From Candidatus Omnitrophota bacterium (GTDB taxonomy: Bacteria > Omnitrophota > Gorgyraeia > B26-G9 > JBDRCZ01), in NCBI GenBank assembly GCA_043821285.1, contig JBDRCZ010000017.1, positions 15,947-79,946 on the forward strand: a stretch of 64,000 bases of DNA. The letters run 5' to 3'. Shown piece after piece: positions 11,321 through 59,960 of the stretch; the stretch's first letter is position 1; the number at the start of each line of letters is the position of its first letter. Position numbers and translations under genes: made by a program. A model generated the notes under the pieces. That model had not been told where the DNA came from. It did not search any database and saw only the letters and a list, made by a program, of their open reading frames with translations.

Positions 11321-12718
11321 TTGAAAAAAACTACGATTATGAGAATTGAAAGTAGAAAATCTACGCGGCTCCGTACGCGCTTACGAATTAAATATCAGAT
11401 TGTTGCCAGTGACGACAGTTTATCAGGTCCAGTATATACAACTAACCGTGATATAAGCGCAAGCGGGATGCTGTTTGAAAGCCCGCGATTAATACCAATT
11501 GATACAGAACTTTACATAACTTTTAATATCCCGGGAATTGATCATCCCTCCCATGTTAAAGGAAGAGTTATCCGCATTGAAGAAAAAGAATTGGGTAAAT
11601 GGTTTTTAATTGGGGTAATTTTTACGGAAATAACGGATGATAATAAAAATGAGATAATCCGCCGCATCGAATTAATGGATATAATGCGGTTATTGCAGGT
11701 TACACATCAACGGCATGCCTCAGATTTACATTTAACTTATAATCGGCCGCCAATCTTGAGAATACATGGAAATTTAAAATTACTGGAGATGGAACCATTA
11801 GATTGTGATGATTTAAAAAACATGATCTATAGTATAATGACAGATGATCATATAGACAGATTTGAAAAACTTAAAGAATTAGATTTTGCATTTTCCCCTA
11901 ATCCGGAACTGCGTTTTCGCGTTAATGTACATCAGCAGCGCGGTAATATTGAAGCAGCTTTTAGAGCGATTATGCCAGAAATACGCTCGATCAGAGAATT
12001 AGGACTGCCATCGGTAGTTGAAAATTTAGCCAGAAAAAAGAAGGGAATTATTGTAATTGCCGGAGCAACCGGAACGGGAAAAACAACAACCTTAGCATCA
12101 ATGGTTGACTTAATTAACAAAGAAAGAGAAACAGTAATAATTTGCCTGGAAGACCCGATTGAATATGTGCATACTAATATTAATAGCATTGTTAAGCAAA
12201 GAGAAATCGGAACCGATACCCTGTCTTTTGCCGGCGCCCTAAAACAAGCGCTACGGCAGGACCCTGATGTGATTATGATTGGAGAGATGTTAGATGCCTC
12301 AACGGTTCGTACCGCAATAACCGCCGCAGAAACCGGGCATTTGGTAATTACTTCTTTGCATGCACCGGATACGGTACAGGCAATTGATCGATTAATTAAT
12401 ATCTTTCCGCCGCAGCAGAAACATCAATTCAGTTTTCAACTCTCTAATTGCCTCGAAGGAATTATTACCCAACTTTTACTCCCGCGTCGGGACAGGGAAG
12501 GCCGGGTGGTAGCAACCGAGGTTATGACGATTACAGATGCTGTGCGCAATCTAATCCGCGATTGTAATACCGTACAAATTCCTTCTGTTATCCAAACCGG
12601 GGCAAAATATATGATGCATACAATGGCCGAATCCATAAAAAGATTGTATGAAAATGGGTTGATTACCAAACGTGTGGCAATTGACCATTGTCCTGAACTT
12701 GAAGAAATTTTATCTTGA
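11321..12718 (+). CDS. pilT: PilZ domain fused to PilT-type type IV pilus retraction ATPase
   Basis: N-terminal PilZ motifs RKSTR and DISASG. PilT core ASDLHLTYNRPPILRIHG, Walker A GATGTGKTTT. ATG 11339 is an alternative start. Confidence 0.85.
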   Translation: MKKTTIMRIESRKSTRLRTRLRIKYQIVASDDSLSGPVYTTNRDISASGMLFESPRLIPIDTELYITFNIPGIDHPSHVKGRVIRIEEKELGKWFLIGVIFTEITDDNKNEIIRRIELMDIMRLLQVTHQRHASDLHLTYNRPPILRIHGNLKLLEMEPLDCDDLKNMIYSIMTDDHIDRFEKLKELDFAFSPNPELRFRVNVHQQRGNIEAAFRAIMPEIRSIRELGLPSVVENLARKKKGIIVIAGATGTGKTTTLASMVDLINKERETVIICLEDPIEYVHTNINSIVKQREIGTDTLSFAGALKQALRQDPDVIMIGEMLDASTVRTAITAAETGHLVITSLHAPDTVQAIDRLINIFPPQQKHQFSFQLSNCLEGIITQLLLPRRDREGRVVATEVMTITDAVRNLIRDCNTVQIPSVIQTGAKYMMHTMAESIKRLYENGLITKRVAIDHCPELEEILS

Positions 12719-40421: not shown

Positions 40422-40446
40422 AAAAAATTGCCATAGGCAATTTTTT
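40422..40446 (-). terminator. terminator hairpin after G3
   Basis: Minus strand reads AAAAAATTGCC-TAT-GGCAATTTTTT then AGTTTACC. Overlaps the stop codon by 2 nt. Confidence 0.55.
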
Positions 40447-43400
40447 AAATTGCCCGTTCAATTTCAAACAAATCTGCTATCTCTCTCTTCTCCAGTTTTG
40501 TATCTGATCCATTTATGCCTACCCTATAGCCAGTGTGTCTTTCTTGGGGAGCAACTATTAGAGAATAAAGAGCGTGTAGTAACAGCATATCAGAATCAGA
40601 AATATGAGGGTCTATATTTTTTGCTTCTAATATTGATTCATCATCGCTTATTATTTCTTGTATAATTGTTTTTACTATATCTCTATCTTCAGCTCTGCAT
40701 TTTTCATGAATTGCATTCAGACATTGTTCAAAAAATGGTCTGAGCATCATAAGCTGAACATTATCTTCTTGTGTATATGCATTGGCAACTGCTTTTGTAA
40801 CTGTTTCTAAAACAGTTTGCCGGTAATCTGGTCTTACCGTATAGATATTATCAAAAAAGATAAAAGTCCCGGCTGCGGCTTGTGGCATTATTGTCTTGTT
40901 TAGTATCTCATTAATAACATTTCGAGGAAAATATACTAAAATACTTAATAATTTATCTATTGTAGTATTACTTGGGGTTAAACCTTGCTGCTGGATCAAC
41001 TCTTGATATTTTCTTCCTATGATTCTATGCATAGATTCAAGACTTCTTCTATTTGCATTTATCATTAAATTATTTCCTTTAACTGCTGTAACTAAGTCCG
41101 TTAATTCGCTTCGTATCATTTCTCGTTCTTTCTCAAATACATCCGTATCTTCGTTCCTCTGAGATATAAATAACCCTAAAAATTCAAGTTCTAATGCTTT
41201 TTTAAAGGCATCTTCCGAAGTAAATGCGTTTAATCTAACAGTAATATTTTCTAACAACATTAGCTCAAAGCTGGTACCTTGACGAAAAATATGTTTTAGA
41301 AATTTTTCTGCATTAGTAAATTCGGGTGAAAAGATGATTTCTCCACTGACACCATCTACTGTTTTCTCCATCACTTCATTTATCAAATTACCTACTGAAT
41401 CTAAGTTGTGAAACTCGTTTAATCTATTTTCATCTTGTATAACAGCTCTTAAATAAACCTCCATTCTTAAAAGGTAATCAGCCAAAAAAACACCATCAAT
41501 TGCAAAACGTATATTTTCATTCGTATCTTGAGTTCTTGCAGTCAAGGCTTGATAAAGAAAATCATCTATATCGGTCAACATTCTATAAAAGATTTCCATT
41601 GCTGTTTCCTTATCCTGTTTTAGAGCAAGTTCGAGGACATTATTAACATTTGAAAAATCTCGTGAAATATACTCCTTAATTACATCACATAACGCATTGA
41701 ACAGTGGTTTTTTATCACGACGGTAAATAGCAAAACTTAGCCTAATAAATGCTGCTAATATCTCATGGGAATTAAATCCTGAATTTATTAAATAACTTTG
41801 CTCCTTTTCTATATAGATTGGTATAATTTTAGAAACGTCATATCCCGCAATAACTGTGTAAGCAACTGCAGCAAAAATAAGATTATGTGTTTCTGCATCA
41901 TGTTTAGGAATGTTTATTCGTTGTAAGATTTCTCCTAATACTTCTCCTGCCTCAGTAGTTCTCTCCTCTTTTCCTTCAATCTGCGCTTTTATTTTATTAG
42001 TAAAAAATTCAAAAACAAAATCAGGTTCTGCCTTAAGATACGCTTCTATTGTTTCCCAATCTGCTGCTAATAAATTACGCAGTTTTTGGATTTTATCTTG
42101 AACCACGATTAAGTTATTTCGTAGATTGCTTATTTTTTTCTGATTTTTTCTCGTTTGTTTTTGCTCTTTGTTTATGGTTTGCTGAATAGTTCTTTCATTG
42201 CTTTGGCGACGATTAAGTGCCTGCGTCCTTGTAATAACTCCTTCTAAGAGGATTGTTACTTCAGAGAGTTTTTCTCTACGCGCTTTTACTGCCGGGGGCA
42301 TATCTAAAAGTAGAGGTTCCCTTGTTGTCACTGGAGCCTGCCATGCTGGAAGTTCTTCAGATGCTACTTGCATAGCAGCAGCGCCTTGAAGGACCTGAGG
42401 ATATAATGAATGTTTTTGCATTGGGTCTTCAACTAACATAAGCTCACAACTTTGAGGCGGTTTGAGAGCATTAATTCTATTTTGGATAACTACTCCCAAT
42501 CCCCAAGCCCATTCTGCTTGACTTTTATATAAATCAACTAAGGCTTCAATATCCTCACTTTCGTTTATAATTGCGGTTATTCTCTCTACCAGAGGAGCCC
42601 GGCTGTTTCTGTTAGGATAGGTATTAAGCATTTGATATAATTCAGGTATATTACTTAAATCATTATAACCGAGTAATCTTTTTCTCAGTACCTCTGCTAT
42701 TACCCCCCTTATTTGCTTACATCCGTAGGTATATTTATTTATAGAATTATCTGTAAGTAAACGAAGCAGGTTTTCGATATCTAAGGAAAACACTTGCCTG
42801 ATAATACCGAAAATAATATATATTTCTACTTCAGAGTGAATTTTTTTACTAAGTAAATTAGCTAATGCAGCAAGTGCCTCGCCCCCCCATTTACTAACCA
42901 TCTCCTGAGCAATAGCTTGAGCTTGTGTTTTGTCATTATTTTCTGCTTGCTGACGTTTAAATCTATCGGAAATTGCGGTTAATCGTTCAATGCCATCTTC
43001 AATCGAAGAAACAGTTAGGTGTATTTCTGATATTTTTCCTTGAGAAGCAATACTATTACTTAATTGTGCGGCTGCTGCTTGCTTTGTTTTCTGGGGTAAC
43101 CTTGGATTTCGTGACCACTCTGAAAGCAAGCGATCATTTACTTCTGCTAATCTTTTTGCAGTGCTTAACGCCTTAATTCTATACCAAAGATAATTATTCC
43201 AGTATTCATCGTCCCATTCTTGGCTTAGATACACATCAACTAAGGCAACAATATCTTGATTATTTTTTATTATATGTTTCATCCTTCTTCTTGCCAGATC
43301 TTTAATGTCTTCGTTCGGACATAATGTTTCATTATTAATAACATAATATAATGCAGAAATACTTGTTACGTTTCGAGGAATGCTAACAGTTTTTATGATA

Positions 43401-46400
43401 ATTATGCTTTTAATCATACCTCTGGTAACTTCAGCTCCTTTAGTTTCTTGCTGATTCATCGCAGTATATAAATAAAATATTTCTGTAACAGACATTGAGT
43501 TAAGACAATTACCAAGTGCCGACATAGTTATTTCTATTGCTTCTTCATTAAGAAGATTCGTATCAATTTGCTCAGCAAATTGTTTAATAATTTCTAAAAA
43601 CTCATCTTTATCCTTTGTGTTATACATTTCTGTTATAATATTTTTAACTTCTTGAGGAGCGGATGCAATAAAGGCTTGTATTTCTTCGGGTGTCTGATAA
43701 TAATCAGCCAACTCTTTCTCCAGCTTTTCTATTTGTGACGCAATTGTCGTATCTAGTTCTGGTTTATTAATTCGCAGCCACTCTATTATTCTTTTTCTTA
43801 CTGTCCGATCTTGGATGCCAATCAATAATCCTAGTACATGCACTACCTCGTTTTCTAAACACATGTATTGTGACAAGATGTCGTTAAGTTCCGTATTCGC
43901 TGCATTGCTAAAGAATAGGTATATAGTACCAGCAATATGTTTTTGTATGCCCGTAAGTCTAAGGATTTTTTCACTCAAAATATTTCTTATGCTCGAACCC
44001 CAGCTTCTTTCTAAATATAATTCTACTGCTGTCTTTAAATTATCACATTCATTAACCAGTTCTCTTATTCTCATCCTTAGCAGTGCCCGGGTTCCTTCAT
44101 GGTACTCTCTATCATTGAGCAAATCTTGCAGTGGTTCGATACTAGCAATGCCTTGATATTCAGCAAGGCGCTGTTTGATCGCTTCTATTAATTGACTACT
44201 ATTGTCCCCATGATTTAACCTACGCAATAGTTCCTCTAAGGTGAGAGTTTTTATGGGGTCAAAATCTGCTAGTAGTTCTGCAAAAGTTACTTGATTATCA
44301 GAAGGCGCTGCAACTTCTCTTGTCGGGGGGGCATCCCTGTTGGTGTCGGCTCTTTGATTAGCGTTTCGCCATGCTGCTCTTAAGGCACGTGTATCTGACT
44401 GTGATGGTGGCTCTGGAAAATGTACCACCTGAGCTGCATTCGACGGAGCTGTTGTTCGTACAAACCTATCTGGAGGGGATAGTGATAGATCGAAAGCAGC
44501 TGCTAGTTTTTCTAATGAGTTTAGAGTCAAAGGGTTATTGTTTCCTGATGGAGGAACTGTATCTTTTGGTAAAGCAACTTCTGCTGTGTCAGTCCCTTCC
44601 TTTTCTGGTTGTCGCAAGTCACCTGATTGTAATGGTACGGTGTATGCTTGAGGGTTATTTTCTTTTTCCCTTTCCCTTTTCCTTTTCTTTCTTGCAATAG
44701 GAGGACTATCTGCTCTATATTGTTTACGTGCTTTCCTTTTCATTAATACAACTTTATCTTCTTCTTCATCATCATCATATTGGTCACTATCATCTATTGC
44801 ATTTATTAACTCCTCTATTATGAGCATTAAAGCAATCCGTATATTTTCTTCTGATAATTCACCCGAACCCTCTTGCATCAATTGCTCAATTTCTTCCTCT
44901 GACAAAGTTAAATCGTTTATAACACCAATGAGCTGTTCAATGATTTGACCATTCTCGTGTGCGCTTTCAATTATATTATCTATAGCATCTTTTAACGCTT
45001 CATGATATGTATCTTCATCAAGTAGTAAATAAGTTTTTACTAAAAAACTAAGATCTATTTCTAAAGCACTATTTCTCGTTGATCTTACGCCGGTACTACC
45101 AAGCAAGCATAGTAAACTAAATCCCCAAGCCAACCCCTTCCAAATAAAAAATGCCAGTGCATCTGGTCTTGCGGCAACAAAGTGTACTACTGGATATAAT
45201 AATCCTTCATGTCGTGCAAGAGAATTTATGATTGTAAATTCGATGTAGTCGATAATAATGAGCATAGCTGATTTAGCACCAGTAACCGCCTTTTTAACTA
45301 ATTCCCAAACATTTGGTATAAATTGTATCTGCGGTTGTATATATAAAGGAAAGGTCATTATTAAGGAAAGACCTAATATAGCGTGTATTGGTAAATGCCC
45401 TAAGTTTACACTAACCGGGATGCCCGTGATATTACTGATTACCTCTAATATAAAAGGTGCAATCAATAATAAAAAGAGGCCATTTATTAATGGATGGGAA
45501 TTCAGGGTAACACTCTTACCAGCATTACTTTCTTGATAAAATTCTCTTACCGCTCTATTTGTTTTTATTAAAGCACGTAAATCAATAATGATATTTCCAT
45601 TTCTATCTTTACGAAGGTCATGTTTATTTTCCTTGTCAGATAAAAATATCTTATCATCTTCTTTCACAATTTTATATTCCACGTTACCAATCCAAATAAT
45701 ATCATTTTCCCTGAAAGTTACTTCTTTCCTTAAAATATCAATGATTAATTCCTTGCTGTTTGCTTCGTTACGCAGAAGAATAGTATTACCAGCTATTGCA
45801 TATTTTGTATTATCTATCATTCTGTCTTGATGCCACCATGCTATTCTGAGTTTGTAACCATCACCCTTTCCCTCAGTTTTTATTTTTTTTAGACCATCTG
45901 TTGGGAAAAATTCTAACCGTTCTCGTAAACGCTGGATTTTAGTATTGTATTGTCTTATATCTAAAATTCGCTTGTTATGAATGTTCTGAATTACAGCTAA
46001 TAACTCGTTGTCCTTAATACTTGCTAATAATGCGCCATAAAAGGCCAGACCTAAGCTATCTACTCTTAAAACTATTCTTTCTATTTCTGTGTGTTTGTTT
46101 TTGTTAAATAGAGTTGTTAAATAATTAGCCAATATCAGTACAAATTCCCCGCCCCACCACTTTATAACCTCAACCAATTGACCAAGAGACTGCGGTGTAA
46201 TATTTTGATGTTCATTCAGGAGATTTTCAATAATTTGTAATACTGCAGAAACTGAATATACACCAAATTGTTCGGCCAAAGCTTTGATTATTGCCAATCT
46301 TTGCGTTTCATCAAAATTATTAAGATTAGCTTCTTTTTCTTTCATCATCTTAATATAATTTTCGGCTGAATCCCAATCTTGAGTAGACTTATTAGTATCC

Positions 46401-47536
46401 CAATACTGTACTGGTTTGCGATACACTGCTTTTGCTGCTACTAATATATTTTTTTCTTTCTCTGTAAGTGCGGTGTCATCATTTGTCCATATCCTAATCA
46501 TTCCGTGTCTTGGTGCTGTTATATAAAATGAAATTTTTGACGCAAGAAACTCTTCCCATTCTTCTGGAGAAGGCACAGTTGATAAATCAGCACGTAAACG
46601 TATAAAACGGTTATAGTTTTTATTTTCGTTATTAATTATGTCTGCCGGAAGCAGCCGCCGGCCAACATGAATTTCTATATTAGAGTTTTCTGGTATTGGT
46701 TGGGTATAACGGCTTCGATCAGGGGTTGAAACATTCCAGTAGTTTTGTGTTGATATACCAAATCTCAAAGATTCGTTATCTATTTTTATGCTCTCGGGAG
46801 CAAAAAACATCATCATAATTGCATGCGCAGGTAAACGTATTGCATCAATCCAGTAGTGAATTCCTTTACGATAACTATACTCAAGGATAATTTTAATACC
46901 ACGTTCAAACAGAACTTTTAATCCGGGTAAAAAGGCAATATTATTAAATACGCTGTTGGTATTTAATCTAAAGACTTCCATATCCCTGGGGACAGTAAGC
47001 ACTATTCGCGGAGACGCACCTTTAATATCTATTTTTCCATAAGTAGTAATTTCACTTTGCAAATCACGCGCCAACCCAAGCAAACTTAGAAAGTCAATTT
47101 CTTTTAGAACCGGGGGTATTCTTTCAACCGTCTCATCATCTGGACAAGGTATTTCTGGAATTTCCCTAATATTTAATTGATTGTTTTTTTTAGAAATTAC
47201 ATAAGAACGTTGTTTACCAGCTGCGCCTGTTGTTACAAACAATACTATCGAACCATCATTCGCAAATCTTTTCTCGCATGCATCAAACTCAAACTTATCT
47301 TTAATATAACTTACGCCAACATGTCCTTCTGCCCAAGTATATGCATCACTTATTTTTTTGTAAAGCATAATATTTTCTGCAAATAGAGGGTCATTTACTT
47401 CCAAAGGCGGGGCAAGATGGGTATGTAGACCTTTTAGATTGCCGCCGGCGGCCCATGAGATGTCTAAGCATAGAAAGGCATTGATTAATATTATGGAAAT
47501 TAGTCTAAAACAAATTGTACGTGTTAAATTATTCAT
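40445..47536 (-). CDS. giant-family protein G3 (2363 aa), function unknown
   Basis: N-terminus MNNLTRTICFRLISIILINAFLCLDISWAAGGNLKGLHTHLAPPL; C-terminus ...DLFEIERAI. Contains a TM cluster and an acidic then basic/Pro-rich low-complexity segment. The C-terminal ~500 aa are paralogous to G6. Confidence 0.8.
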   Translation of the reverse strand: MNNLTRTICFRLISIILINAFLCLDISWAAGGNLKGLHTHLAPPLEVNDPLFAENIMLYKKISDAYTWAEGHVGVSYIKDKFEFDACEKRFANDGSIVLFVTTGAAGKQRSYVISKKNNQLNIREIPEIPCPDDETVERIPPVLKEIDFLSLLGLARDLQSEITTYGKIDIKGASPRIVLTVPRDMEVFRLNTNSVFNNIAFLPGLKVLFERGIKIILEYSYRKGIHYWIDAIRLPAHAIMMMFFAPESIKIDNESLRFGISTQNYWNVSTPDRSRYTQPIPENSNIEIHVGRRLLPADIINNENKNYNRFIRLRADLSTVPSPEEWEEFLASKISFYITAPRHGMIRIWTNDDTALTEKEKNILVAAKAVYRKPVQYWDTNKSTQDWDSAENYIKMMKEKEANLNNFDETQRLAIIKALAEQFGVYSVSAVLQIIENLLNEHQNITPQSLGQLVEVIKWWGGEFVLILANYLTTLFNKNKHTEIERIVLRVDSLGLAFYGALLASIKDNELLAVIQNIHNKRILDIRQYNTKIQRLRERLEFFPTDGLKKIKTEGKGDGYKLRIAWWHQDRMIDNTKYAIAGNTILLRNEANSKELIIDILRKEVTFRENDIIWIGNVEYKIVKEDDKIFLSDKENKHDLRKDRNGNIIIDLRALIKTNRAVREFYQESNAGKSVTLNSHPLINGLFLLLIAPFILEVISNITGIPVSVNLGHLPIHAILGLSLIMTFPLYIQPQIQFIPNVWELVKKAVTGAKSAMLIIIDYIEFTIINSLARHEGLLYPVVHFVAARPDALAFFIWKGLAWGFSLLCLLGSTGVRSTRNSALEIDLSFLVKTYLLLDEDTYHEALKDAIDNIIESAHENGQIIEQLIGVINDLTLSEEEIEQLMQEGSGELSEENIRIALMLIIEELINAIDDSDQYDDDEEEDKVVLMKRKARKQYRADSPPIARKKRKREREKENNPQAYTVPLQSGDLRQPEKEGTDTAEVALPKDTVPPSGNNNPLTLNSLEKLAAAFDLSLSPPDRFVRTTAPSNAAQVVHFPEPPSQSDTRALRAAWRNANQRADTNRDAPPTREVAAPSDNQVTFAELLADFDPIKTLTLEELLRRLNHGDNSSQLIEAIKQRLAEYQGIASIEPLQDLLNDREYHEGTRALLRMRIRELVNECDNLKTAVELYLERSWGSSIRNILSEKILRLTGIQKHIAGTIYLFFSNAANTELNDILSQYMCLENEVVHVLGLLIGIQDRTVRKRIIEWLRINKPELDTTIASQIEKLEKELADYYQTPEEIQAFIASAPQEVKNIITEMYNTKDKDEFLEIIKQFAEQIDTNLLNEEAIEITMSALGNCLNSMSVTEIFYLYTAMNQQETKGAEVTRGMIKSIIIIKTVSIPRNVTSISALYYVINNETLCPNEDIKDLARRRMKHIIKNNQDIVALVDVYLSQEWDDEYWNNYLWYRIKALSTAKRLAEVNDRLLSEWSRNPRLPQKTKQAAAAQLSNSIASQGKISEIHLTVSSIEDGIERLTAISDRFKRQQAENNDKTQAQAIAQEMVSKWGGEALAALANLLSKKIHSEVEIYIIFGIIRQVFSLDIENLLRLLTDNSINKYTYGCKQIRGVIAEVLRKRLLGYNDLSNIPELYQMLNTYPNRNSRAPLVERITAIINESEDIEALVDLYKSQAEWAWGLGVVIQNRINALKPPQSCELMLVEDPMQKHSLYPQVLQGAAAMQVASEELPAWQAPVTTREPLLLDMPPAVKARREKLSEVTILLEGVITRTQALNRRQSNERTIQQTINKEQKQTRKNQKKISNLRNNLIVVQDKIQKLRNLLAADWETIEAYLKAEPDFVFEFFTNKIKAQIEGKEERTTEAGEVLGEILQRINIPKHDAETHNLIFAAVAYTVIAGYDVSKIIPIYIEKEQSYLINSGFNSHEILAAFIRLSFAIYRRDKKPLFNALCDVIKEYISRDFSNVNNVLELALKQDKETAMEIFYRMLTDIDDFLYQALTARTQDTNENIRFAIDGVFLADYLLRMEVYLRAVIQDENRLNEFHNLDSVGNLINEVMEKTVDGVSGEIIFSPEFTNAEKFLKHIFRQGTSFELMLLENITVRLNAFTSEDAFKKALELEFLGLFISQRNEDTDVFEKEREMIRSELTDLVTAVKGNNLMINANRRSLESMHRIIGRKYQELIQQQGLTPSNTTIDKLLSILVYFPRNVINEILNKTIMPQAAAGTFIFFDNIYTVRPDYRQTVLETVTKAVANAYTQEDNVQLMMLRPFFEQCLNAIHEKCRAEDRDIVKTIIQEIISDDESILEAKNIDPHISDSDMLLLHALYSLIVAPQERHTGYRVGINGSDTKLEKREIADLFEIERAI

Positions 47537-47854: not shown

Positions 47855-47879
47855 TAAAAAATTGCCGCAGCAATTTTTT
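47855..47879 (-). terminator. terminator hairpin after G4
   Basis: Minus strand reads AAAAAATTGC-TGCG-GCAATTTTTT then AGTTTACC. Confidence 0.55.
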
Positions 47880-50800
47880 AGATTGCTTGTTCTACTGCCA
47901 ACATTTCATTCCACTCTAACTCTGTAAGTGCAGGGGGTTGTTTAGGCATTGTTGTCAATTGTCCTGGGTTATTATCATGAGGATCCAGTCTTTGCTGCTC
48001 TACAATCTTTATTGCTGCTTCAATAATCGCTGCAGTGTCCATCTTATGTGCACGGTATAATATCTCGTGACTTCTTGCGGATTGTCCCCAACCTTGGATT
48101 CCTAACGAAGTTACAGTTGAACCAGTTGTAAGCAGAGATGAAGTTACTACCTTACTTACTGCTCCGCTTAATATTTTTGGAGAAGCGTCTTGAACAGTAA
48201 TTATTGGCACTCCCCGTTCAAGAAGAGGTGGTAAAGCTTCATCGATTAAATCCAATCTGGTCAAATTTATTACTTTTGCGGTAATATCTTGACTTTCCAA
48301 TTGTTCGCTCGCGGCAATTGCAAATTCCACCATTGCTCCGGCAGCAATAATAATAATATCGCTATTTTGTCCGTTTTCTCTTGGATCTTTAATTACATAA
48401 GCACCTTGTTCTGGACTGGGATTTTCTCCTCTATTTAAAACTGGAACATTTTGACGGGTAAGCTGAAGATAAGAAGGTCCTTTACCATCTAATGCCCTGT
48501 GCATAGCAAAATCTACTGCTTCTTCAGCCTCACGGGCATCTGCAGGTATAAAACCAGTCATTTTTTGCAAAAAAGAAATATAGCGAATAACGCCAGCAAC
48601 GATTACTGACTGATGAGTAGAACCGTCTGGCCCAACGCCTAAGCCGGCATGACTTAACGCAACAATTACCGGTAGTTTTGCCCGGGCAATCACAATTATT
48701 TGACTAATCATTCGGTTAGCAAAACAATCAAAGGTTGCGATAACTGGTATCTTACCATATAATGCTAATCCAGCAGCAATTCCTGCCATTGCTTGTTCTC
48801 TTACTCCGGATGGAACGTATCTTCCATTGGTGTTATGACGAGAAAAAATGCCAAAGTCCCTAGCAAACCAATTCAGTCTTGTAGAACTGGCAATGTCCGC
48901 GCAGAAAGCAATAATCTTTTCGACGCGTTTTCCCCAGTCAAGCATCCTGTTACCAAAACCATCACGTGTAGCAAAATTCCTATTTGCTTGGTATCTAATT
49001 TCTGCCGGTGTTTGTAGCATTGTCATTTGAACCGGCTCTGGCTCTTGTGTTTGTTTAATGTTGCTATAAATAAGCAGATTGAATTCCCCAATCTTATAAG
49101 GAACCATTCCATTCAATGCTTCCATAATTGTTGTGGCCATGATGTGTTCATCAAAACCCCGGGTAATAATTAAAACAGGTTTTCCTGTATTATCCTTGTT
49201 TAGCTGTTCAAAGGTTTGACCTAAGATTTCAGCCTGTTCTTGATTATTATTAGCATTGAGCTCAATCACTCTCCAACCATAAGCTTGCCAAATATTAACT
49301 AATTCCGTGTTTGTCTCTGAAGCTTGAAGGACTAAGCAGAGATTATCTATGCCATTGTGTGCGGCGAATCTAGCTGTTTCTGCAAACTGACCTTCTCTTT
49401 CTTCTTTTTCCGTGGCTAAAGCAATAACTCTGCCAGATGCTGTATCCATTTTAGCTCCAAAAGCTATACCTGCGGCCAGAGAAAGACGCATACCCGCAGG
49501 GAATATTTCTTGAGGACTAAAATCTATTTTCATAAGCCCGTCCGTGGGTTTTTCTTTTCCATCAACTAATTCTTTTGCTACTTCTATTATATTTTCAATA
49601 TCCTTGTCACTCATGGACCAAACAACGGAACCTGCGGTTTTAGAAGATGAAGTTACAGTCCTGCTTACCGCATCACCTAAACATACTGGCAATCCATCAT
49701 AAATTGTAAGAATACGGCTTCCTGGCTCAATATACTCTAAGAGCTCACTTCCTGCACCTAATGAGTCTAATTGCGTAACATTTATGATCTTAGTCATCGT
49801 ACCTTGTGATTCTAACTCATTACTGACTTTTATGGTTTGATGAAGACTTTTACCTGAAGAAATAAGAATAACCCTCTTTTTTGCCGTGTCCCACCCTTCA
49901 GATTGACTTATAACATAGGCACCTTGCTCTGGCTGGGGATTTTCTCCTCTATCTATAACCGGAAGATCTGCAGAACTTAAACGAATATAAGAAGCAGTGT
50001 ACTCATCTGGGATATTAAGTGATGTAGGGGCTTTATTTGTTATTTTAGCCAATAATAATGCATTTTTTATTGCCATATCAGTCAACTCATTAGTTTCATT
50101 AGGATCCCCTGGTTCTAACGCAATTACATTATGCATCAGGTCCATAACTCCTGGGGTAAAACTTAACTCTTCAGATTCAGCCGCTAAAATAAACGGTACC
50201 CTTGCCTGAGCATTTATCCTTAATTGGTCTAACATTTTCATCGCATCATTTTCCGGCAGAAAGACAATCGGCAGCATACCCGAATAACCAAACCCAGCAG
50301 CAAAACTGGCTAAGTGCTGTTCTCTATCCTCAACTAAGAAACATCGCTCGATGAGTTTATTTCTTATATCTTCATCAGTAATCTGTGCAATAAATTCATC
50401 AATAAATCTTTGTTTAGAATCGGAATTATTAAAAATAAATACTATCCGTTCATCTTTTTCTGCCCACTGGAGTAGTCTATTTTTAAATGCAACAGATGGA
50501 GAGACTTCCTCATCCTGTGCATAGTTGGTTCTATCTGGTATTGTTGTCGTGTCTGTTTTTTGTAGAGTACTCTCTTTTGATAAATTGTTTTCTTCTTGTT
50601 CTGTCATTTGGTTATCTGAAATAAATCTATCTACATCTGTTGAAAATCCATAAAAATTCATTTGTTGACTAATATTTTCAATTGTGTTTTCTATTTGGGG
50701 GATAGCTTCAGATAGTTCTTTATCATTTAATGCTCTACCGTGAAACGCGGTTGGATCATCTTCCATAAAATCTACGCCTTTACCTTTTTTTGTCTTGGCA

Positions 50801-53553
50801 ATAATTGCTGTTGGCTTGTTTTTAATGTTTCTTGCTTCTTCACAAGCCGCGATAATTTCTAATGGTTCATGGCCATTAATTTCAATAACATGCCAGCCAC
50901 AACCTCTCCACGAACCTGCGACATCCGCACTATCTACTTCTTTAGTCAAGCTATCAATTTGTGCGCCATTAGCATTTACAAATAAGGTAAGATTATCTAA
51001 CCCTAATTCCGCAATATGCCTGGCAGCCTCTGCATATTGTCCTTCCTGTTCTTCCCCATCACCGGCAATAGCAAAGACGTTGGAGTCACGTCCATGCATT
51101 TTAGCTAGAAGCGCCATACCCGCGGCATTGGAGAGTCCCATACCTAAGGAACCGGTCAAGGCTTCTATACCACGAGTACAAATCCAGTCAGTATGTCCAG
51201 GAAGTCCACTGTTTAACTCTCTTAAATGGGATAATTGCTCTTTTGAAATATAGCCAAGTTTAGCTAAAATAGAATAAACTGCTGGCGCTATATGCCCTTC
51301 AGAAATAACTAACCGGTCACGGTCTGGCCAGCGCGGGTCATTTGGTGTATGATTCATAATCCGCGTTCCATCGGAATATCGTCCAAGATATAAAGTGACC
51401 AGTATCTCAGCCGCAGAGAGCGAACCTCCTGGATGTCCTGAACCAGCTATATTAATCATCTCCAGAATATCATTACGGCACATTTCTGCGATTTTCTTTA
51501 ACATCAAGCTTTGGCGCTGCTGTTCTATATAGTCTTTTCGCCAAAAAGCACCAATTATCAAAACACCAACAAGAAATATAGTATATGCGATCAATAAATG
51601 TATTGGAGATTGAAACAGTGTCATTATTGGTATTGAAATGGTTTCAAAACGATGGCTAAATGTTTTTAGTAGTTCGACAAAAGCTAATAAAATCGCACCA
51701 ATTGTGCCCAATAAGGCATAGGGGTTGAATTGTCGAAGGGTTAAATCTTGAGGAAATATATCTGAATTGTGGGGTGAAACATTAGAATCATCCCCTTTCC
51801 TTTTTAAATATTCTATTGCTCCATTAACCACCAAAAGAGCCCTAAAATATGCCTCTAAATAATCTTCTGCTGTTGTAAGAATAATTTTTTGATCATCTAA
51901 TCCAGAACGTGCTATCGGGTGACCTAAAATGTTTTCGTTTTCAGCCATTCTTTGTGAAGCAATCTTCCGCATATGTGTCCAGTTATGAAGTTGATTTACG
52001 CCTTTCAGCGGTAATAAGAGAGGGTTTCTTATACCCTGTGAGGTATAAAATTTTTCAACATCCTCGTCTTTGAGACCTGTCTGCTCTGGCACAAAATGAG
52101 GAGTATCACTAGGATATGCAGCCTCTGCCAAAAAAACATTTGCTGTTATTCTCCCCGAAGAATAATGTTCTGTTACACATTTTAGGTAAAAAACCAATGT
52201 TCCATTTAAAGCAGAGTCAATAAAGCATACTTGCGATGTATTATTATCAATAATTCCTTCATCAATTAACTGCTCATAAGTTTGTTTTGCTTGTTCAGCA
52301 AAAACCGTGTTTGTTTTTAATGTTTCTTCAAAGGATTGTCTTAATTGTGGATAGAAATTTTCCGGATCTCCTTGTTCTGTAGTATTGCGGCGAACTTTTC
52401 GCAATGTGTCTTCAATAATCTTAAAATTGTCGCGTTTTCTTTTTTCCGGAGTAGGATGATCATCTCCTATATAACCTAACATTTTTCGATCAAGATAAAA
52501 TACAAAAGAATTATCAGGGGGAGCCCCTTTTGTCAAAAGACTCAAATAATACTCGGACTCATAGTAAATTGCTCCATCACGTGCTAAATAAACTCTTCGT
52601 CCTTCAGCAGGTAATTGTTCTAATAAATAAGGGATGATTTTAGCTGTGCCTATTAACCACATAAAAGAATCTTTTTTTTGTCTTGAAGTCAAAAAATGGC
52701 AAAGGCTTCTTAGCTTTATATTCAAACTTCCAGTAAATAAGCCTTGATTTCTTACACCTTGTTCTGTCATTACCAATAACTCTTGCTCTCTTCTTCGTAA
52801 TTCTTCTGCTATTTCTACGTTACTTCTCCATCTCAATTGGTCTGGTTTAAGAACTTGATAATGCGTGCGTACCTCATGCCCTTCGATCGGGCTTAAAAAA
52901 TGTATCGGAAATGTTGGACTTATTTCTGGTACATTAATAGAGGTTAACATCATTTCTAAATCCATGGCTATACCTTCTTCGCCGAGTGGATGTCTTAATA
53001 CTGATAATGCGCGCTCTTTAACTTTATCATTGGGGTCTTCCAATATTATTTTTTTCAAAAATTCAACAACCTTTGTTTTAGCTGTCTCACTTTTGTTCCC
53101 AACAATTCCCAAGAGCCGTATTAAATTACTGCGTGGATTGTCTAACACAACACCACCACGATAAAGAAGATCATCAGGGTCAATAATGGTTGGATCATCC
53201 CAAGCAGCGATTAAGGCATTTATCAGTATAATAGCATCGAGACTTAATAATTTTGGAGCTTCATTTCGTCTCCAAATATTAAACTGCGAAAAAGTTAATC
53301 TTAAAACTTGCGTTAGTTCTTCCCTTTTTATCTCTATAGGGTACTTATTTACTGATTGTGTAGATATACCAAGTGTATTTTGTTCAAAAGGCTCTGTAAG
53401 TGAAGACTTACTTATCTCTAAAGGAGGCGAGAGGTGGGTGGACAAATTTTTCAAATTACTATTTGCCGCCCATGAAATGTCAAGACATAAAAAAGAGTTG
53501 ATTAATATAAAGGCTGTTAGTTTGAATAAAATGTCCCGTTTTATTTTTTTCAT
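47878..53553 (-). CDS. giant-family protein G4 (1891 aa) with two tandem split-type transketolase units
   Basis: N-terminus MKKIKRDILFKLTAFILINSFLCLDISWAANSNLKNLSTHLSPPL; C-terminus ...EMLAVEQAI. TM cluster at aa 612-671, transketolase-like sequence from aa ~685 to ~1850. Confidence 0.85.
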   Translation of the reverse strand: MKKIKRDILFKLTAFILINSFLCLDISWAANSNLKNLSTHLSPPLEISKSSLTEPFEQNTLGISTQSVNKYPIEIKREELTQVLRLTFSQFNIWRRNEAPKLLSLDAIILINALIAAWDDPTIIDPDDLLYRGGVVLDNPRSNLIRLLGIVGNKSETAKTKVVEFLKKIILEDPNDKVKERALSVLRHPLGEEGIAMDLEMMLTSINVPEISPTFPIHFLSPIEGHEVRTHYQVLKPDQLRWRSNVEIAEELRRREQELLVMTEQGVRNQGLFTGSLNIKLRSLCHFLTSRQKKDSFMWLIGTAKIIPYLLEQLPAEGRRVYLARDGAIYYESEYYLSLLTKGAPPDNSFVFYLDRKMLGYIGDDHPTPEKRKRDNFKIIEDTLRKVRRNTTEQGDPENFYPQLRQSFEETLKTNTVFAEQAKQTYEQLIDEGIIDNNTSQVCFIDSALNGTLVFYLKCVTEHYSSGRITANVFLAEAAYPSDTPHFVPEQTGLKDEDVEKFYTSQGIRNPLLLPLKGVNQLHNWTHMRKIASQRMAENENILGHPIARSGLDDQKIILTTAEDYLEAYFRALLVVNGAIEYLKRKGDDSNVSPHNSDIFPQDLTLRQFNPYALLGTIGAILLAFVELLKTFSHRFETISIPIMTLFQSPIHLLIAYTIFLVGVLIIGAFWRKDYIEQQRQSLMLKKIAEMCRNDILEMINIAGSGHPGGSLSAAEILVTLYLGRYSDGTRIMNHTPNDPRWPDRDRLVISEGHIAPAVYSILAKLGYISKEQLSHLRELNSGLPGHTDWICTRGIEALTGSLGMGLSNAAGMALLAKMHGRDSNVFAIAGDGEEQEGQYAEAARHIAELGLDNLTLFVNANGAQIDSLTKEVDSADVAGSWRGCGWHVIEINGHEPLEIIAACEEARNIKNKPTAIIAKTKKGKGVDFMEDDPTAFHGRALNDKELSEAIPQIENTIENISQQMNFYGFSTDVDRFISDNQMTEQEENNLSKESTLQKTDTTTIPDRTNYAQDEEVSPSVAFKNRLLQWAEKDERIVFIFNNSDSKQRFIDEFIAQITDEDIRNKLIERCFLVEDREQHLASFAAGFGYSGMLPIVFLPENDAMKMLDQLRINAQARVPFILAAESEELSFTPGVMDLMHNVIALEPGDPNETNELTDMAIKNALLLAKITNKAPTSLNIPDEYTASYIRLSSADLPVIDRGENPQPEQGAYVISQSEGWDTAKKRVILISSGKSLHQTIKVSNELESQGTMTKIINVTQLDSLGAGSELLEYIEPGSRILTIYDGLPVCLGDAVSRTVTSSSKTAGSVVWSMSDKDIENIIEVAKELVDGKEKPTDGLMKIDFSPQEIFPAGMRLSLAAGIAFGAKMDTASGRVIALATEKEEREGQFAETARFAAHNGIDNLCLVLQASETNTELVNIWQAYGWRVIELNANNNQEQAEILGQTFEQLNKDNTGKPVLIITRGFDEHIMATTIMEALNGMVPYKIGEFNLLIYSNIKQTQEPEPVQMTMLQTPAEIRYQANRNFATRDGFGNRMLDWGKRVEKIIAFCADIASSTRLNWFARDFGIFSRHNTNGRYVPSGVREQAMAGIAAGLALYGKIPVIATFDCFANRMISQIIVIARAKLPVIVALSHAGLGVGPDGSTHQSVIVAGVIRYISFLQKMTGFIPADAREAEEAVDFAMHRALDGKGPSYLQLTRQNVPVLNRGENPSPEQGAYVIKDPRENGQNSDIIIIAAGAMVEFAIAASEQLESQDITAKVINLTRLDLIDEALPPLLERGVPIITVQDASPKILSGAVSKVVTSSLLTTGSTVTSLGIQGWGQSARSHEILYRAHKMDTAAIIEAAIKIVEQQRLDPHDNNPGQLTTMPKQPPALTELEWNEMLAVEQAI
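48004..49521 (-). other. G4 transketolase unit 2: truncated/degenerate PP part, intact Pyr + C-terminal domains
   Basis: The PP remnant has TEKEEREGQ where GDGExxEGQ is expected. The Pyr domain has ATRDGFG, VREQAMAGIAAGLA, GPDGSTHQ. The C-terminal domain has IIIIAAGAMV...AKVINLTRLD. Confidence 0.75.
49564..50511 (-). other. G4 transketolase unit 1, Pyr + C-terminal domains, degenerate
   Basis: Collinear with the unit 2 Pyr domain (shared DRGENPQPEQGAYVI / NRGENPSPEQGAYVI), but the GxDGxTHQ position reads ESEELSFTPGV. Confidence 0.6.
50719..51501 (-). other. G4 transketolase unit 1, TPP (PP) domain, motifs intact
   Basis: SGHPGGSLSAAEILVTLY, DRDRLVISEGH, GSLGMGLSNAAGMA, GDGEEQEGQYAEAARHIAELGLDNLTLFVNANG. 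Confidence 0.8.
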
Positions 53554-53751: not shown

Positions 53752-55232
53752 ACAGTACTTTGTTAAAAATCAGGTCTTTTCAAAAAAATCATTTACGTAA
53801 GTCGTGAAAACTCATAACTTATGTAATTTCAATACTTTACGTTAATTTTTTCCTTGACAATATCCACAACTCCTGCTATGGTATATAGTTGTAATCAAAC
53901 CACCGTAACACACAACAGGAGGTGGATATGGGTATTTTTAATCTCACTATTTCGGTAATCAATAATTTCTTATTTCGTTTTAAACCTGCCTTCTCAAAAA
54001 AACAATTTATCGTTTTCTCCTTCCTGATCTATGCTTTGTTTAAAGACTACAAGAGAAATTCCCTTTATGCCCTCGCCTCTAAAACTCCAATCAACTATCA
54101 GGCTTGTCAGTACTTCTTATCTGAAGGAAAATGGAGTATCGATGATCTTAATAATATAAGGTTAAAAATTATTGAACATCAAAGAACTACTTCTGCTACT
54201 TCCTCCGGCGTCTTAGTTATTGATGATACTTCTCCTAAGCCTTTTGCTAAAGCTACCGCCGGTGCTAAACGTCAACACTGTGGTGTCTTAAATCGTGAAG
54301 AAATCTGTAATGTTGCTGTATTCTCTGCCTTCGCCTCCAAAACTAAACGCTTCCCGATAAACCTTAAATCTTATCTCCCCGCTGAAAAATTCTTATTTGG
54401 CAAAGAGGATGTAGATTTTAAAAGTAAGCTCGATCTTGCCCAAATATTAGTCGATGATGCCTTAGAAAGAAAAATTAAATTCTCTTCCCTCGTCATAGAT
54501 GCATGGTATGCTCAGTCTTCACAATTCCTTGAGTTTGTTCACTGCCAGAGAAAACTGCCCTTCATTGGTGAATTAAAGTCCAATCGTAACATCTTCTTTT
54601 ACCATCCGCTAAAGCGGAAACACTGCTGGATCCAGCAGGATGAGCTGGTGAAACTCATCAAAAAACATTATCCGCATAAGTGTAGGTTTTTTACCTCCAC
54701 GAGCAAAGATGGTAAGAAGAAGTCTTGGGTCTTCTACACCTTCAAGGGACTGCTGAAAGATTGTTCTGTTCCCTTAAGCATAGTGGTGATCTTTGGTAAG
54801 TGGGATAATCAGGATGATAAGAATGTTCATATCCTTATCTCCAATCAGACCCGCCTGGCTACTAAGACCATCATTTCCACCTACCTGCTTCGTTGGGGAA
54901 TAGAGCTTATCTTCAGGGAGCTCAAGGATGTCTTCTCCTTTGACCAATACCAGGTTAGACATACCAAACAGATCGAACGTTACTAGACACTATGCCTTAT
55001 TGCATGGAGCCTGTTATATTGGGTCAAACAAAATGCCTATCTTACCAAAATCCTTGAGCATAAACCTGCTACCTTCTATGACTACAAACAGGCCATTGAC
55101 TCCTTACTCCTTTATGATGCTCATCAGTCTCTTTCAAAGAACAGTCATCTTGCTCAGAAATATTTTAAAATTAAATCGGATAATTTTAAACAGCAAATCG
55201 CTCGCGTTGCCTGATTTTTAACAAAGTCCTGT
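53752..55232 (+). mobile_element. IS4/IS701-like insertion sequence (1481 bp)
   Basis: 23-bp terminal inverted repeats ACAGTACTTTGTTAAAAATCAGG (53752-53774) and reverse-complement ACAGGACTTTGTTAAAAATCAGG (55210-55232), 1 mismatch. Direct 6-bp flanks TCTATC (53746-53751 and 55233-55238). Confidence 0.8.
53922..55214 (+). pseudogene. DDE transposase (IS4/IS701-like) interrupted by an in-frame TAG
   Basis: VLVIDDTS, LVIDAWY, YLLRWGIELIFRELK blocks. TAG at 54984-54986, after which the same frame continues 75 codons (TLCLIAWSLLYWVKQN...QQIARVA) to TGA 55212-55214. Confidence 0.65.
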
Positions 55233-55287: not shown

Positions 55288-55312
55288 AAAAATTGCCGAT
55301 GGCAATTTTTTT
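55288..55312 (-). terminator. terminator hairpin after G5
   Basis: Minus strand reads AAAAAAATTGCC-ATC-GGCAATTTTT then AGTTTACCGTTTAC. Confidence 0.55.
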
Positions 55313-58300
55313 AGATTGCCTGTTCCACGGCCAAAACCGTATTCAATCCTACTCCTTCAAGTAGCGGAAGTAAAGACATCAATTTCTGCATAGGCTTTTC
55401 ACCCTGCTGTCTGCAACCATCTGGAGTGTCTTTTCTTTCTCCATCTTCCATGAAACTCTGAGAAGCTAAATATCTCATTAGTTCTCCTGTTTGATTAGGA
55501 TTGGTTACTCTTACTATCGTAATATTTTCAACTTTAAGAACTAATCGATCATTACCTCCACTCCAAAATTCATCACCAATATATATGTCAGCTGCTGCAT
55601 CTATTACAGCCGCGGCTTTATCTTCTAAGTTTTCAGTATGTTCTTCTACAAAATCTCCCATTTTTTCATCATAGATGAATTTATGATACCCCGGTTCAGA
55701 GGATATGGTATAAAGAACAAGATTTTTTAATAAACCCTGCTTATCTTTCGGGATAGCAAATAATACCTGGCCTTTTACATTAAATATGTTTCCGCCAGTA
55801 ATTATTCTTAGCTTATATCCAACCTCAAGTAAGTTAAGGAATGCATCCAGATTATCTTCTCCGATTATTCCCCAGTAAGGAACAAGTGTGCCATCCATAT
55901 CTATTCCTATAACCTGAATTTCTTCTAACGGTACATGGCCATTTATAATATCATGGACATTTAATGGAGTATTTTGGGTTGTATCTACTGGGGATAGCGT
56001 GCCAAGTGTTTGTTTTGGGACAAAACTGTTTTCTTGCTCACGCTTTGCTATAAATTTACGGTGTGCAAGGACAATAAAGGTAGAAAGTGCAAGACCTTTA
56101 CCCTGCAATTCTTCTACTGTTTCACGGTTATCTTTAAGCTGCGGATCTAAATATGCCGCCAATAATTGCATAAGCAAAGGTTCATTAAGTAATAAATCTA
56201 CTCCCACGTTAACTTCTTGATAAAGTTTTTTTGCCTTTACATAGTCTGAAAAAAGTTCTCCTAATAACGAGGATTCATTGGTTAATTCCGCATACAAATT
56301 ATCGAATATTTCTTCTACAGATATTAATATATCATTGTACATTTCATCAGAAAGATGGCTTCTTAAAAATTCTTCTTGTTCTTGTACTTTCCACGGAGGT
56401 AGATATTTACTTCTCAAACCGTATTGATTTAAACATTGCTCTAACTTATAAAAGATTATTTGTTCAAGAACACTCTCATTATCAACTTTACTGATCAAAT
56501 TTTCTGGCAAGCGGTTTTTAATAAGATTTTTAAGCAGTGTACCAGTCGCCGATGTACTCAATCCGGTTCCATCAGCAAGTGAGTTTGGTGTCCATTCAAA
56601 AGGCAGCCATTCTGACACAACTATTCCGTGAAGATACTCTCTTCCAAAAGATATTCTTCCTCTTGTTCCTAAACCAAAAGTGTGAAGTTGAATGCCAAAT
56701 TGTTCGTTAAGCTTAGCATTTGTAACAGTGGAAGAGTCAGAATTTTTAAGAAGAGCAGCGAAATGTGCTTCAACCTCTGCTAATGAATCAAGCAAACACC
56801 TTGCTTTATGAAGAGTTACACCAGTTTCAACAATATCATCAATTATAAGAACGTTGCGGTGTTCTCTGAGATACTCGACGACCTTTGTATCATTTAGAAA
56901 TAACCGCAGGTCTTCAGGAGAATCTAAAGAGTATACATCTCTTTCAAAACCCAAACGCACCCTTTCAGCTTCTGTCAATAATGACCAAATTATTGTTGTT
57001 AAATTTAACTTTTGAGTAATAATCCAACTTTGGAATTCAGGTATTTCCTTATTAAATAAGTTATTCGCTTTTAACTGAGTAAGCAAAATTTCCAATGCTT
57101 TGGCAATTGGATCAGCTCCTTTTGAGGGAAAGATAACTAAATTTATATCGTGTTGGATTAAATATTTAACAATAGGAAGAAGTATAGGAGCAAATTGCAA
57201 AACTTGTATGTCTGTTCCTAAAGAATCTATGTCTCCAATTTCTTCACCTAATGCAGCTTCGACCGCCTGCCGAAGCTTTCCAGTATATCTGGAGCGATAA
57301 GGACTACGCAGATATCCTTCAATCGTTGGCAAGTTTTTTGCGATCTCCTTTTCAAGCTCTTCTTCAGCCCTCAAAAACATCTGATGCCCTGTTTCTGTCC
57401 TGAATAAAGTTTCACCCAGAAAATTGCCGTCATCTTTGCCTGATTTTTCATAAAGTCTATACTCTTCTTCAAGGCGCTCTTTATTAGTTTTAAATCTGGC
57501 TCGGATCTGTTCAGGTGTTATTTCTATTCCCGCAGCTTCTAAATCAGCAATAATCCCTTGATAAGTACACATAAATAATCTGTCTGCCTCACGCCATACT
57601 GTTATTAATCTATAAAAAGAAGAAGCATTAGCAAAAGGCCCTTCAAAATTAAACAAAAACTGTCCTTTTTCATATAAAGAAGTATCAACACCCATATTTC
57701 TAAGCTCTACTAAGGCCTGTTCAATAGAAGGATTATCATGAGCTTTTACCACACCACAGATTAAATTTACATTTACATCAGTTGCACTTAAAATACCGGT
57801 TGAAATTAATTGTTGGATTAATTCCCTAATCATTTCGGGGGCTTTTTTCATATGCGCAAGCCTAAACGCGATTGTGTTCTGCGCTAATTCTTTTGCCTTT
57901 AACGAATTTCTCTGTTCAATTTTCTTGCGTATTTGAATAATTCTTGCCCGTGAGCCTTCTAACTTGGCGTACCCAATATCATGTAATAAGGCTAATATTG
58001 CTGCGTTTTTAAATTCTTCATAGGTAAAATCTTCTCCTAATCCAATCTGCACCGCGTTCTCTAAGACTTGAGTATGATGATTTACAGGGTTGCCATTTGC
58101 TCCAGCTTTAAAATGAGGTAAGGCGCTCCAAAAAAGTGTGAAGAGAATATTTTGAATTTCTTGTTTTTGCTGGTCTGTAAATGTGCGGTCTTTTTCAATG
58201 CGGCTTAGTGCATTTTCCAAATTCTGAACTGCTAAACTTTTCTTACACTGAACAAGATAGTAGCCATTCTTTTCTTCAATTACTGCTTCTAATCCATTGT

Positions 58301-59935: not shown

Positions 59936-59960
59936 AAAAAGTTGCCATAGGCAACTTTTT
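59936..59960 (-). terminator. terminator hairpin after G6
   Basis: Minus strand reads AAAAAGTTGCC-TAT-GGCAACTTTTT then GTTAACCGTTTACTGTTTACC. Confidence 0.55.

Follow-up and report, generated by a model that had tools for sequence, protein, structure and literature searches.

The 64,000-nt stretch of DNA analyzed here (the window) derives from the 85,997-bp contig JBDRCZ010000017.1 of the Candidatus Omnitrophota bacterium assembly GCA_043821285.1, where it occupies positions 15,947 to 79,946 of the forward strand. Its minus strand carries six consecutive large open reading frames (ORFs) of 995 to 2363 aa between positions 29833 and 63891. One of them, G4, is uninterrupted, and its product is named 'MAG: transketolase C-terminal domain-containing protein [Candidatus Omnitrophota bacterium]' by NCBI (MAG, metagenome-assembled genome). 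G4 comprises a leader module, an N-domain that belongs to no recognizable family, a hydrophobic hairpin, two tandem transketolase units and a C-terminal tail (Table 1). Each unit is built from a domain that binds the diphosphate of the cofactor thiamine diphosphate, ThDP (PP), a pyrimidine-binding domain (Pyr) and the C-terminal domain of transketolases (TKC), numbered 1 or 2 according to the unit.

Table 1. Coordinates of G4, its domains and motifs, the cluster ORFs and other window features.
Feature	Residues of G4	Position in window	Strand	Basis or remark
G4 ORF	1-1891 plus stop	47878..53553	(-)	uninterrupted
Leader module	1-47	53413..53553	(-)	read from sequence
N-domain	48-610	51724..53412	(-)	no recognizable family
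Hydrophobic hairpin	611-673	51535..51723	(-)	Kyte-Doolittle scan
PP1, intact	685-956	50686..51501	(-)	Pfam, own HMM, alignment
Pyr1, degenerate	1014-1200	49954..50514	(-)	own HMM, alignment
TKC1, diverged	1209-1318	49600..49929	(-)	Pfam, own HMM
PP2 remnant	1354-1466	49156..49494	(-)	unit-unit BLASTP, own HMM, alignment
Pyr2, intact	1527-1705	48439..48975	(-)	Pfam, own HMM, alignment
TKC2	1715-1849	48007..48411	(-)	Pfam, own HMM
C-terminal tail, last residues AVEQAI	1850-1891	47881..48006	(-)	comparison of cluster ORFs
Unit 1 motif SGHPGGSLS	705-713
Unit 1 motif SEGH	751-754
Unit 1 motif GDGEEQEGQ	831-839
Unit 1 motif NANG	860-863
Unit 1 motif ESEELSFTPGV	1126-1136
Unit 2 motif TEKEEREGQ	1381-1389
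Unit 2 motif ATRDGFG	1528-1534
Unit 2 motif REQAMAGIAAGLA	1585-1597
Unit 2 motif GPDGSTHQ	1641-1648
Duplicated peptide DRGENPQPEQGAYVI	1201-1215
Duplicated peptide NRGENPSPEQGAYVI	1707-1721
Near-repeat of 58 nt		48392-48449 and 49910-49967		83% identical
Cluster ORF		29833-32820	(-)
Cluster ORF		33141-39581	(-)
Cluster ORF		40445-47536	(-)
Cluster ORF (G4)		47878-53553	(-)
Cluster ORF		55311-59036	(-)
Cluster ORF		59959-63891	(-)	listed from internal TTG
DDE transposase ORF		53922-54986	(+)
ThiC, C-terminal part		86-982	(+)	cut by window edge
PilZ-T2SSE ORF		11321-12718	(+)

The Pfam matches of G4 were Transketolase_N (residues 686-949, E-value 5e-51), Transket_pyr (1527-1704, E-value 3e-35) and Transketolase_C in two stretches. 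Hidden Markov models (HMMs) for PP, Pyr and TKC, which we made from 16 ordinary transketolases, detected all three domains twice: at 685-956 (319 bits), 1021-1164 (11 bits) and 1212-1305 (24 bits) in unit 1, and at 1354-1466 (46 bits), 1527-1705 (126 bits) and 1718-1847 (54 bits) in unit 2. The PP2 remnant spanned positions 116-234 only of the PP profile. In a BLASTP comparison the two units were collinear and 30% identical over 530 columns (E-value 8e-51), and unit 2 started at the equivalent of residue 804 of unit 1. These domain matches are far above chance, and no frame of the window held a further transketolase signal besides this module. An earlier reading of the letters alone (the sequence-only reading) had placed two tandem transketolase units at 48004-51501. 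This span corresponds exactly to residues 685-1850, the duplication that it claimed is borne out by the alignment of the units, and all eleven motifs that it quoted were found where it had put them.

The best relatives in the PDB were the two chains of a split-gene transketolase, 6YAK for PP1 (E-value 5.5e-62) and 6YAJ for Pyr2-TKC2 (E-value 2.9e-29), together with human transketolase. When Pyr1 and TKC1 were searched alone against the PDB, there was barely any match, as they are strongly diverged. One 58-nt stretch was 83% identical between the units and encoded the near-identical peptides (D/N)RGENP(Q/S)PEQGAYVI. It may represent a short gene-conversion tract within G4, since the corresponding segments of the closest relative, P0123 (see below), are not alike.

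To assess the state of the active-site residues, we placed the two units in an alignment that also contained human transketolase and 15 full-length homologues. Residue roles were assigned from those of human transketolase, whose numbering agrees with the 6RJB alignment. The cofactor ligands assigned in this way agree with the list given for the split enzyme (PMC7661550). All nine residues checked were kept in PP1 (H707, H754, H787, G801, D832, E837, N862, K923 and H938), including the ThDP motif (GDG at 831-833 and N862). In Pyr1, five of the human residues were substituted (R318 by S1020, F389 by P1100, F392 by D1103, H416 by S1127 and R474 by S1194), D424 and H428 were deleted, as was the GxDGxTHQ loop, and E1078 was the sole checked Pyr residue left, at a position occupied by Gly in P0123. 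The PP2 remnant has lost the first ~120 PP residues, the three histidines among these, and its metal ligands (GDG replaced by TEK at 1381-1383, and Asn by S1412), and still has the acidic residues E1384, E1387 and E1392. Pyr2 keeps all nine residues checked (R1530, S1557, E1586, F1608, F1611, H1635, D1643, H1647 and R1700). The sugar-phosphate set of the human enzyme (R318, S345, H416 and R474) corresponds to R1530, S1557, H1635 and R1700 of unit 2, and this set is also present in P0123.

Of the features of a transketolase (EC 2.2.1.1; PF00456, PF02779 and PF02780), G4 has PP in unit 1, Pyr in unit 2 and TKC in both. The pattern of a homodimer with two equivalent sites was not found. As unit 1 is without the Pyr set and unit 2 is without the PP set, only one complete pairing, PP1 with Pyr2, would be possible per chain. 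The sequence-only reading had proposed such a complementary loss, and the alignment agreed with it for G4 as well as for P0123; neither of the patterns that would speak against the proposal, both units keeping or both losing a full catalytic set, was observed.

Relatives of the tandem were sought in an exhaustive HMMER search with residues 685-1884 of G4. There was one outstanding match, P0123 (3487 aa), which aligned as one stretch over query residues 1-1164 with 51% identity. This protein (UCD14944.1, annotated as a TPR protein) comes from another Candidatus Omnitrophota MAG, in whose complete chromosome, CP070797.1, it is encoded. Its six domains follow each other as in G4, and PP2 is truncated at the same point. 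All live-site residues checked were identical in the two proteins (9/9 in PP1 and 9/9 in Pyr2), while the dead positions of Pyr1 differed (S/Y, E/G, P/S, D/N, S/A and S/E in G4/P0123). This contrast reflects selection at the live site and drift at the dead one. Identity was highest in PP1 (66%, the most conserved region) and Pyr2 (55%), followed by Pyr1 (48%), the PP2 remnant (42%) and TKC1 (36%), whereas identity fell to 19-28% in the linkers and to 5-20% beyond the transketolase module. Since the dead domains are conserved above the level of the linkers, the dead half is still a constrained, folded body.

It could be argued that the whole module is a catalytically dead scaffold, retained for its fold only or as a sensor of ThDP or sugar phosphates. 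Half of the module is degenerate, G4 lies just under the cut-off of an NCBIfam equivalog, and an exported protein would have neither cofactor nor substrates. We nevertheless consider a pseudoenzyme improbable, given that all 18 live-site residues are unchanged in a relative of 51% overall identity in which the dead positions drift, and that PP1 is more conserved than any other region. A regulatory role of the dead pocket was rejected, as its residues differ between the orthologues. The channel glutamates E157, E160 and E165 were kept in both PP domains of G4 and of P0123; the equivalent of the far-end Glu366 is Gly in P0123.

A third protein, P0169 (MFH1379313.1, 1573 aa), has PP1 and Pyr2-TKC2 intact and has lost TKC1. 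It keeps short recognizable remnants of Pyr1 and PP2, with ~50 residues between them, which would be the parts expected face to face across a dimer interface. Within its residues 330-715, the PP remnant has other residues in place of channel glutamates, E160 and E165 having been lost. P0169 looks like a later stage in the erosion of the dead half. When distances between the TKC copies of G4 and P0123 were compared, the C1 copies of both proteins grouped together, as did their C2 copies, and the next neighbor of each G4 copy was the other G4 copy. The pairing of like copies across proteins indicates one duplication that predates the divergence of G4 and P0123.

The recurrence of the tandem also bears on whether it could be an artefact of assembly or gene calling, i.e., a collapsed or duplicated region. 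Such artefacts do occur among the database matches: P0003 (482 aa) and P0004 (361 aa), the top word-index matches to unit 1, contain near-exact internal repeats of PP, look like metagenome assembly artefacts and are unrelated to the G4 tandem. For G4 itself an artefact is barely credible, as the units are only 30% identical, the ORF is uninterrupted, and the architecture recurs in the complete chromosome of an independent genome and, degraded, in yet another genome. Another protein with two PP domains, P0145, was rejected as a relative of the tandem, being a Symbiodinium tkt product unrelated to this lineage.

From the observed domain order, duplication, complementary residues and conservation, we consider it likely that G4 is a single-chain pseudo-heterodimer with one site for ThDP and sugar phosphate, formed by PP1 and Pyr2, and with a retained dead counterpart. 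Residues 685-1850 are an internally duplicated transketolase, PP-Pyr-TKC followed by a truncated PP-Pyr-TKC, whose units would pack on each other in the way that protomers pair in an ordinary transketolase dimer. To the live pocket, PP1 would contribute the ligands of the ThDP diphosphate and the metal as well as the substrate histidines, and Pyr2 the cofactor-activating Glu1586, the Phe residues stacking on the pyrimidine and the Arg/Ser/His/Arg set for the sugar phosphate. The dead pocket between Pyr1 and the PP2 remnant, its ligands lost, would stay as a structural counterpart.

Activity, substrate and location are features that we infer. Ketol transfer between sugar phosphates is the probable reaction, given that the live site has the phosphate-binding and catalytic residues found in bona fide transketolases. 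Related Omnitrophota modules adjoin transaldolase domains (P0131, P0132 and P0133), and these neighbors would fit genuine pentose-phosphate chemistry. The leader, the membrane hairpin and the N-domain are not housekeeping-like, and weak matches to DXS and E1 models were found, so one might think of a different ThDP reaction, either DXS-like or another carboligation or cleavage of a non-canonical substrate. An identity as DXS or E1 was rejected, with scores far under the cut-offs (for DXS, 142.5 bits vs. 465.95 for TIGR00204 and 96 bits vs. 395 for NF003933). Considering also that the sugar-phosphate Arg/Ser/His/Arg and the catalytic His/Asp residues are all present, and that related modules are fused to transaldolase, a different reaction is highly improbable.

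The structure of residues 680-1860 was predicted with AlphaFold2, yielding a mean predicted local distance difference test score (pLDDT) of 75.8 and a predicted template modelling score (pTM) of 0.68. The underlying alignment had depth on unit 1 only, as MAFFT stacked all homologues there. Unit 1 was predicted at a pLDDT of about 85-97, with PP1 at about 95 and the dead Pyr1 at about 85-95. Its model is a complete transketolase fold, which Foldseek aligned to whole chains of human transketolase (4KXU/6HA3) with a TM-score of 0.81-0.82 and a root-mean-square deviation of 3.3 Å. The PP2 remnant reached a pLDDT of about 80 without aligned homologues, and TKC2 ranged from about 50 to 95. The pTM exceeds the value attainable from unit 1 alone (55% of the residues), which suggests that the model places parts of unit 2 against unit 1.

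An arrangement with the same number of sites per chain would arise if PP1 and Pyr2 paired between chains, giving a swapped G4 dimer with two live sites in which Pyr1-TKC1-PP2 is a large structured insertion. Obligate dimers with intersubunit sites are the rule for ordinary transketolases (PMC7661550), the AlphaFold2 model does not display a PP1-Pyr2 contact, and membrane tethering would raise the local concentration of chains and thus favor pairing between them. This arrangement is nonetheless unlikely in our estimation. Unit 1 is predicted as a complete protomer, Pyr1 included, the dead domains are conserved well above the level of the linkers, and P0169 retains exactly the Pyr1 and PP2 remnants, as expected of the core of an intramolecular pseudo-dimer.

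We next considered the N-terminal part of G4. A Kyte-Doolittle scan detected hydrophobic segments at residues 8-30, 611-633 and 646-673, in line with the signal-like N-module and the transmembrane cluster described in the sequence-only reading. The leader consists of a K/R-rich n-region, the hydrophobic core ILFKLTAFILINSFLCL and DISWAA, followed by NLKNLSTHLSPPL. Its -3 and -1 residues are small (S-W-A precedes A), and it resembles a signal peptide. The hairpin, YALLGTIGAILLAFVELLKTF, a loop of ~18 residues and IHLLIAYTIFLVGVLIIGAFW, probably forms two membrane helices. For the N-domain, no significant match was found in Pfam, none in NCBIfam and none that was convincing in the PDB (best E-value 0.011), and the fetched proteins included no relatives of it beyond the leader. 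An AlphaFold2 prediction of residues 31-610 from the single sequence had a pLDDT of 34. PADLOC gave no match for G4. With the transketolase module lying behind the leader, a 560-residue domain of no known family and a two-helix hairpin, it would be tethered to a membrane. If the leader is a cleavable Sec-type signal and the hairpin spans the membrane twice, the N-domain and the enzyme would both lie outside the cytoplasm.

The leader is not restricted to G4. Five of the six cluster ORFs share an N-terminal module of ~50 residues with a K/R-rich start, ILINAFLCLDISWAA and then NLKxLxTHLAPPL; the sixth, ORF 59959-63891, is listed from an internal TTG, has no leader there and may start further upstream. 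All six end in a hydrophobic residue followed by E-[QR]-A-I (FIEQAI, IAEQAI, EIERAI, AVEQAI, AVEQAI and AIEQAI). Taken together, these shared ends resemble a pair of addressing signals, one N-terminal and one C-terminal, carried by cargo that is otherwise unrelated. ORF 55311-59036 (1241 aa) has the same leader and an EQAI end, and contains a class I S-adenosylmethionine-dependent methyltransferase domain (residues ~112-236); a phosphoribosyltransferase (725-767) and a HAD hydrolase (1045-1087) are weakly indicated. The ORF would represent another set of cytoplasmic-type enzymes behind the leader. Between this ORF and G4 lies the sole plus-strand gene of the cluster, a DDE transposase ORF (Pfam DDE_5, E-value 6e-22) that looks like the insertion of an insertion sequence.

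The left half of the window is of a housekeeping nature, encoding ThiC, GuaA, DnaE, an ATPase of the PilZ-type II secretion system (T2SS) kind and HisS. The ThiC fragment is the C-terminal part of the thiamine pyrimidine synthase, which means that thiamine synthesis is at least partly encoded by the genome. The ATPase gene joins a PilZ domain to a type II/IV secretion ATPase (T2SSE), and about 17 kb separate it from the cluster. The 2023 giant-gene preprint describes pilZ homologues as well as secretion-system genes in the vicinity of Omnitrophota giant genes.

Transketolase units embedded in long proteins proved to be common among the relatives of G4. Of the 150 best relatives, 149 were new sequences, and at least 25 of these were 1200-5448 aa long and carried such units. 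Nearly all of the 30 scanned relatives of at least 850 aa had one complete transketolase unit, and many began with a signal-like sequence. A signal-like hydrophobic start was seen in P0128, P0131, P0132, P0141, P0149, P0164, P0169, P0180, P0188 and others, some of them named Omnitrophota. Several long relatives were fused to transaldolase, and those with a taxon name belonged to Omnitrophota. Thus, P0131 (1958 aa), P0132 (1436 aa) and P0133 (1424 aa, a partial sequence) each combine a complete transketolase unit with a transaldolase domain, and P0133 also has an M54 peptidase and a HAD hydrolase; P0132 and P0133 are named Omnitrophota, and P0131 and P0132 begin with a signal-like leader. Non-oxidative pentose-phosphate enzymes appear to occur here in fused form, and at least two of the fusions have predicted export signals. 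In many of the long transketolase-bearing proteins the last residues are small or hydrophobic (..QAA, ..IAA, ..MAA, ..ISA or ..RSA), hinting at a wider C-terminal signature.

Signal peptides combined with transmembrane helices have been reported for 39% of long Omnitrophota proteins, in which multi-enzyme metabolic content together with this topology is common (10.64898/2026.06.07.730766). Compared with this class, G4 has n-, h- and c-regions and the two hydrophobic segments of the hairpin, as read from the sequence and its hydropathy. At 1891 aa, it is far shorter than the proteins of ≥10,000 aa that are central to that work. The word transketolase is absent from both 10.64898/2026.06.07.730766 and the 2023 giant-gene preprint. 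The sequence-only reading had called the context unusual for such an enzyme; it is unusual for ThDP enzymes in general and ordinary for Omnitrophota.

A more far-reaching idea, which we regard as doubtful, is that G4 is a single-site ThDP enzyme working outside the cytoplasm of its producer (at the cell surface, in the periplasm, or within a host or prey cell). It would belong to a family of cargo proteins, encoded by the six adjacent genes, that the ~50-residue leader and the C-terminal E-Q-A-I address as a paired signal, and the fusion of the protomers would be an adaptation to export. If this is true, the fused protomers would assemble after export without having to search for a partner.

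Several points weigh against G4 being a single-chain enzyme with one live site. Pyr2 was modelled at a pLDDT of only 25-50, from an alignment with depth on unit 1 only, and the contact of PP1 with Pyr2 within one chain is one that we infer. The whole protein scored 478.8 bits with the NCBIfam transketolase model NF004559, narrowly under its cut-off of 488 bits, and was further below the cut-offs of the other NCBIfam transketolase equivalogs. The lineage consists of three known members (G4, P0123 and P0169); the genome scan for the tandem found CP070797.1 only, and no further tandem came up when metagenomes were scanned with dead-half-specific patterns. Finally, an extracytoplasmic enzyme would be paradoxical, as ThDP and sugar phosphates are not expected there.

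G4 is of interest in three respects. Transketolase and other ThDP enzymes are obligate dimers in which an acidic proton channel joins the two sites, and cooperation between the sites is debated in terms of half-of-the-sites reactivity, a low-barrier hydrogen bond between Glu366 and Glu160 and cooperative binding of ThDP (PMC6834573, PMC10308531, PMC10688766). An enzyme that has lost one site and kept the body of the partner would be a natural experiment on what the second site contributes and on how the sites communicate. The module also documents a route from duplication through fusion to complementary degeneration, with three stages preserved in related genomes. Lastly, G4 provides a concrete case of the Omnitrophota puzzle of cytoplasmic-type enzymes behind signal-like leaders in long membrane-associated proteins.

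In its fold and residues, and probably in its chemistry, the G4 module is a transketolase. None of the literature searched describes a tandem or single-site transketolase, and the layout has apparently not been described before. Asymmetric loss after fusion is known from other enzymes: in mammalian adenylyl cyclase (C1/C2) and in the 100-kDa hexokinase I, a homodimeric ancestor was fused and one working site was left next to a structural or regulatory pseudo-site. Their fold and chemistry are unrelated to those of G4, and the dead pocket of G4 is without a sign of a new conserved function. The human transketolase homologues TKTL1 and TKTL2 have deletions or substitutions in PP, and their activity is debated; they consist of a single unit, whereas G4 is an internal tandem with complementary loss.

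The single-unit modules of other Omnitrophota proteins (e.g., P0126, P0128, P0131 and P0132) are the nearest relatives of Pyr2 after P0123, and they share with G4 the signal-like leader and the long multi-domain protein. Unlike G4, they have one complete PP-Pyr-TKC with all residues intact and presumably still dimerize. Canonical transketolases (human TKT, 3MOS/4KXU; E. coli TktA, 1QGD; yeast TKL1, 1TRK) resemble G4 in the three domains, their order and the cofactor, metal and substrate residues of PP1 and Pyr2. They differ in that two identical chains form two sites, compared to two diverged units and one completable site in the single chain of G4, whose unit 2 is also without the first ~120 PP residues. 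The split transketolase of Carboxydothermus hydrogenoformans (ChTK-N/ChTK-C, 6YAK/6YAJ) is, like G4, a short form without the long linker between PP and Pyr (PMC7661550). It is an alpha2-beta2 tetramer in which PP and Pyr-TKC are separate polypeptides and the two sites are equal (PMC7661550), whereas all parts of G4 are encoded in one ORF. G4 would therefore mark the opposite extreme to the split enzyme, with four halves fused and two of them dead.

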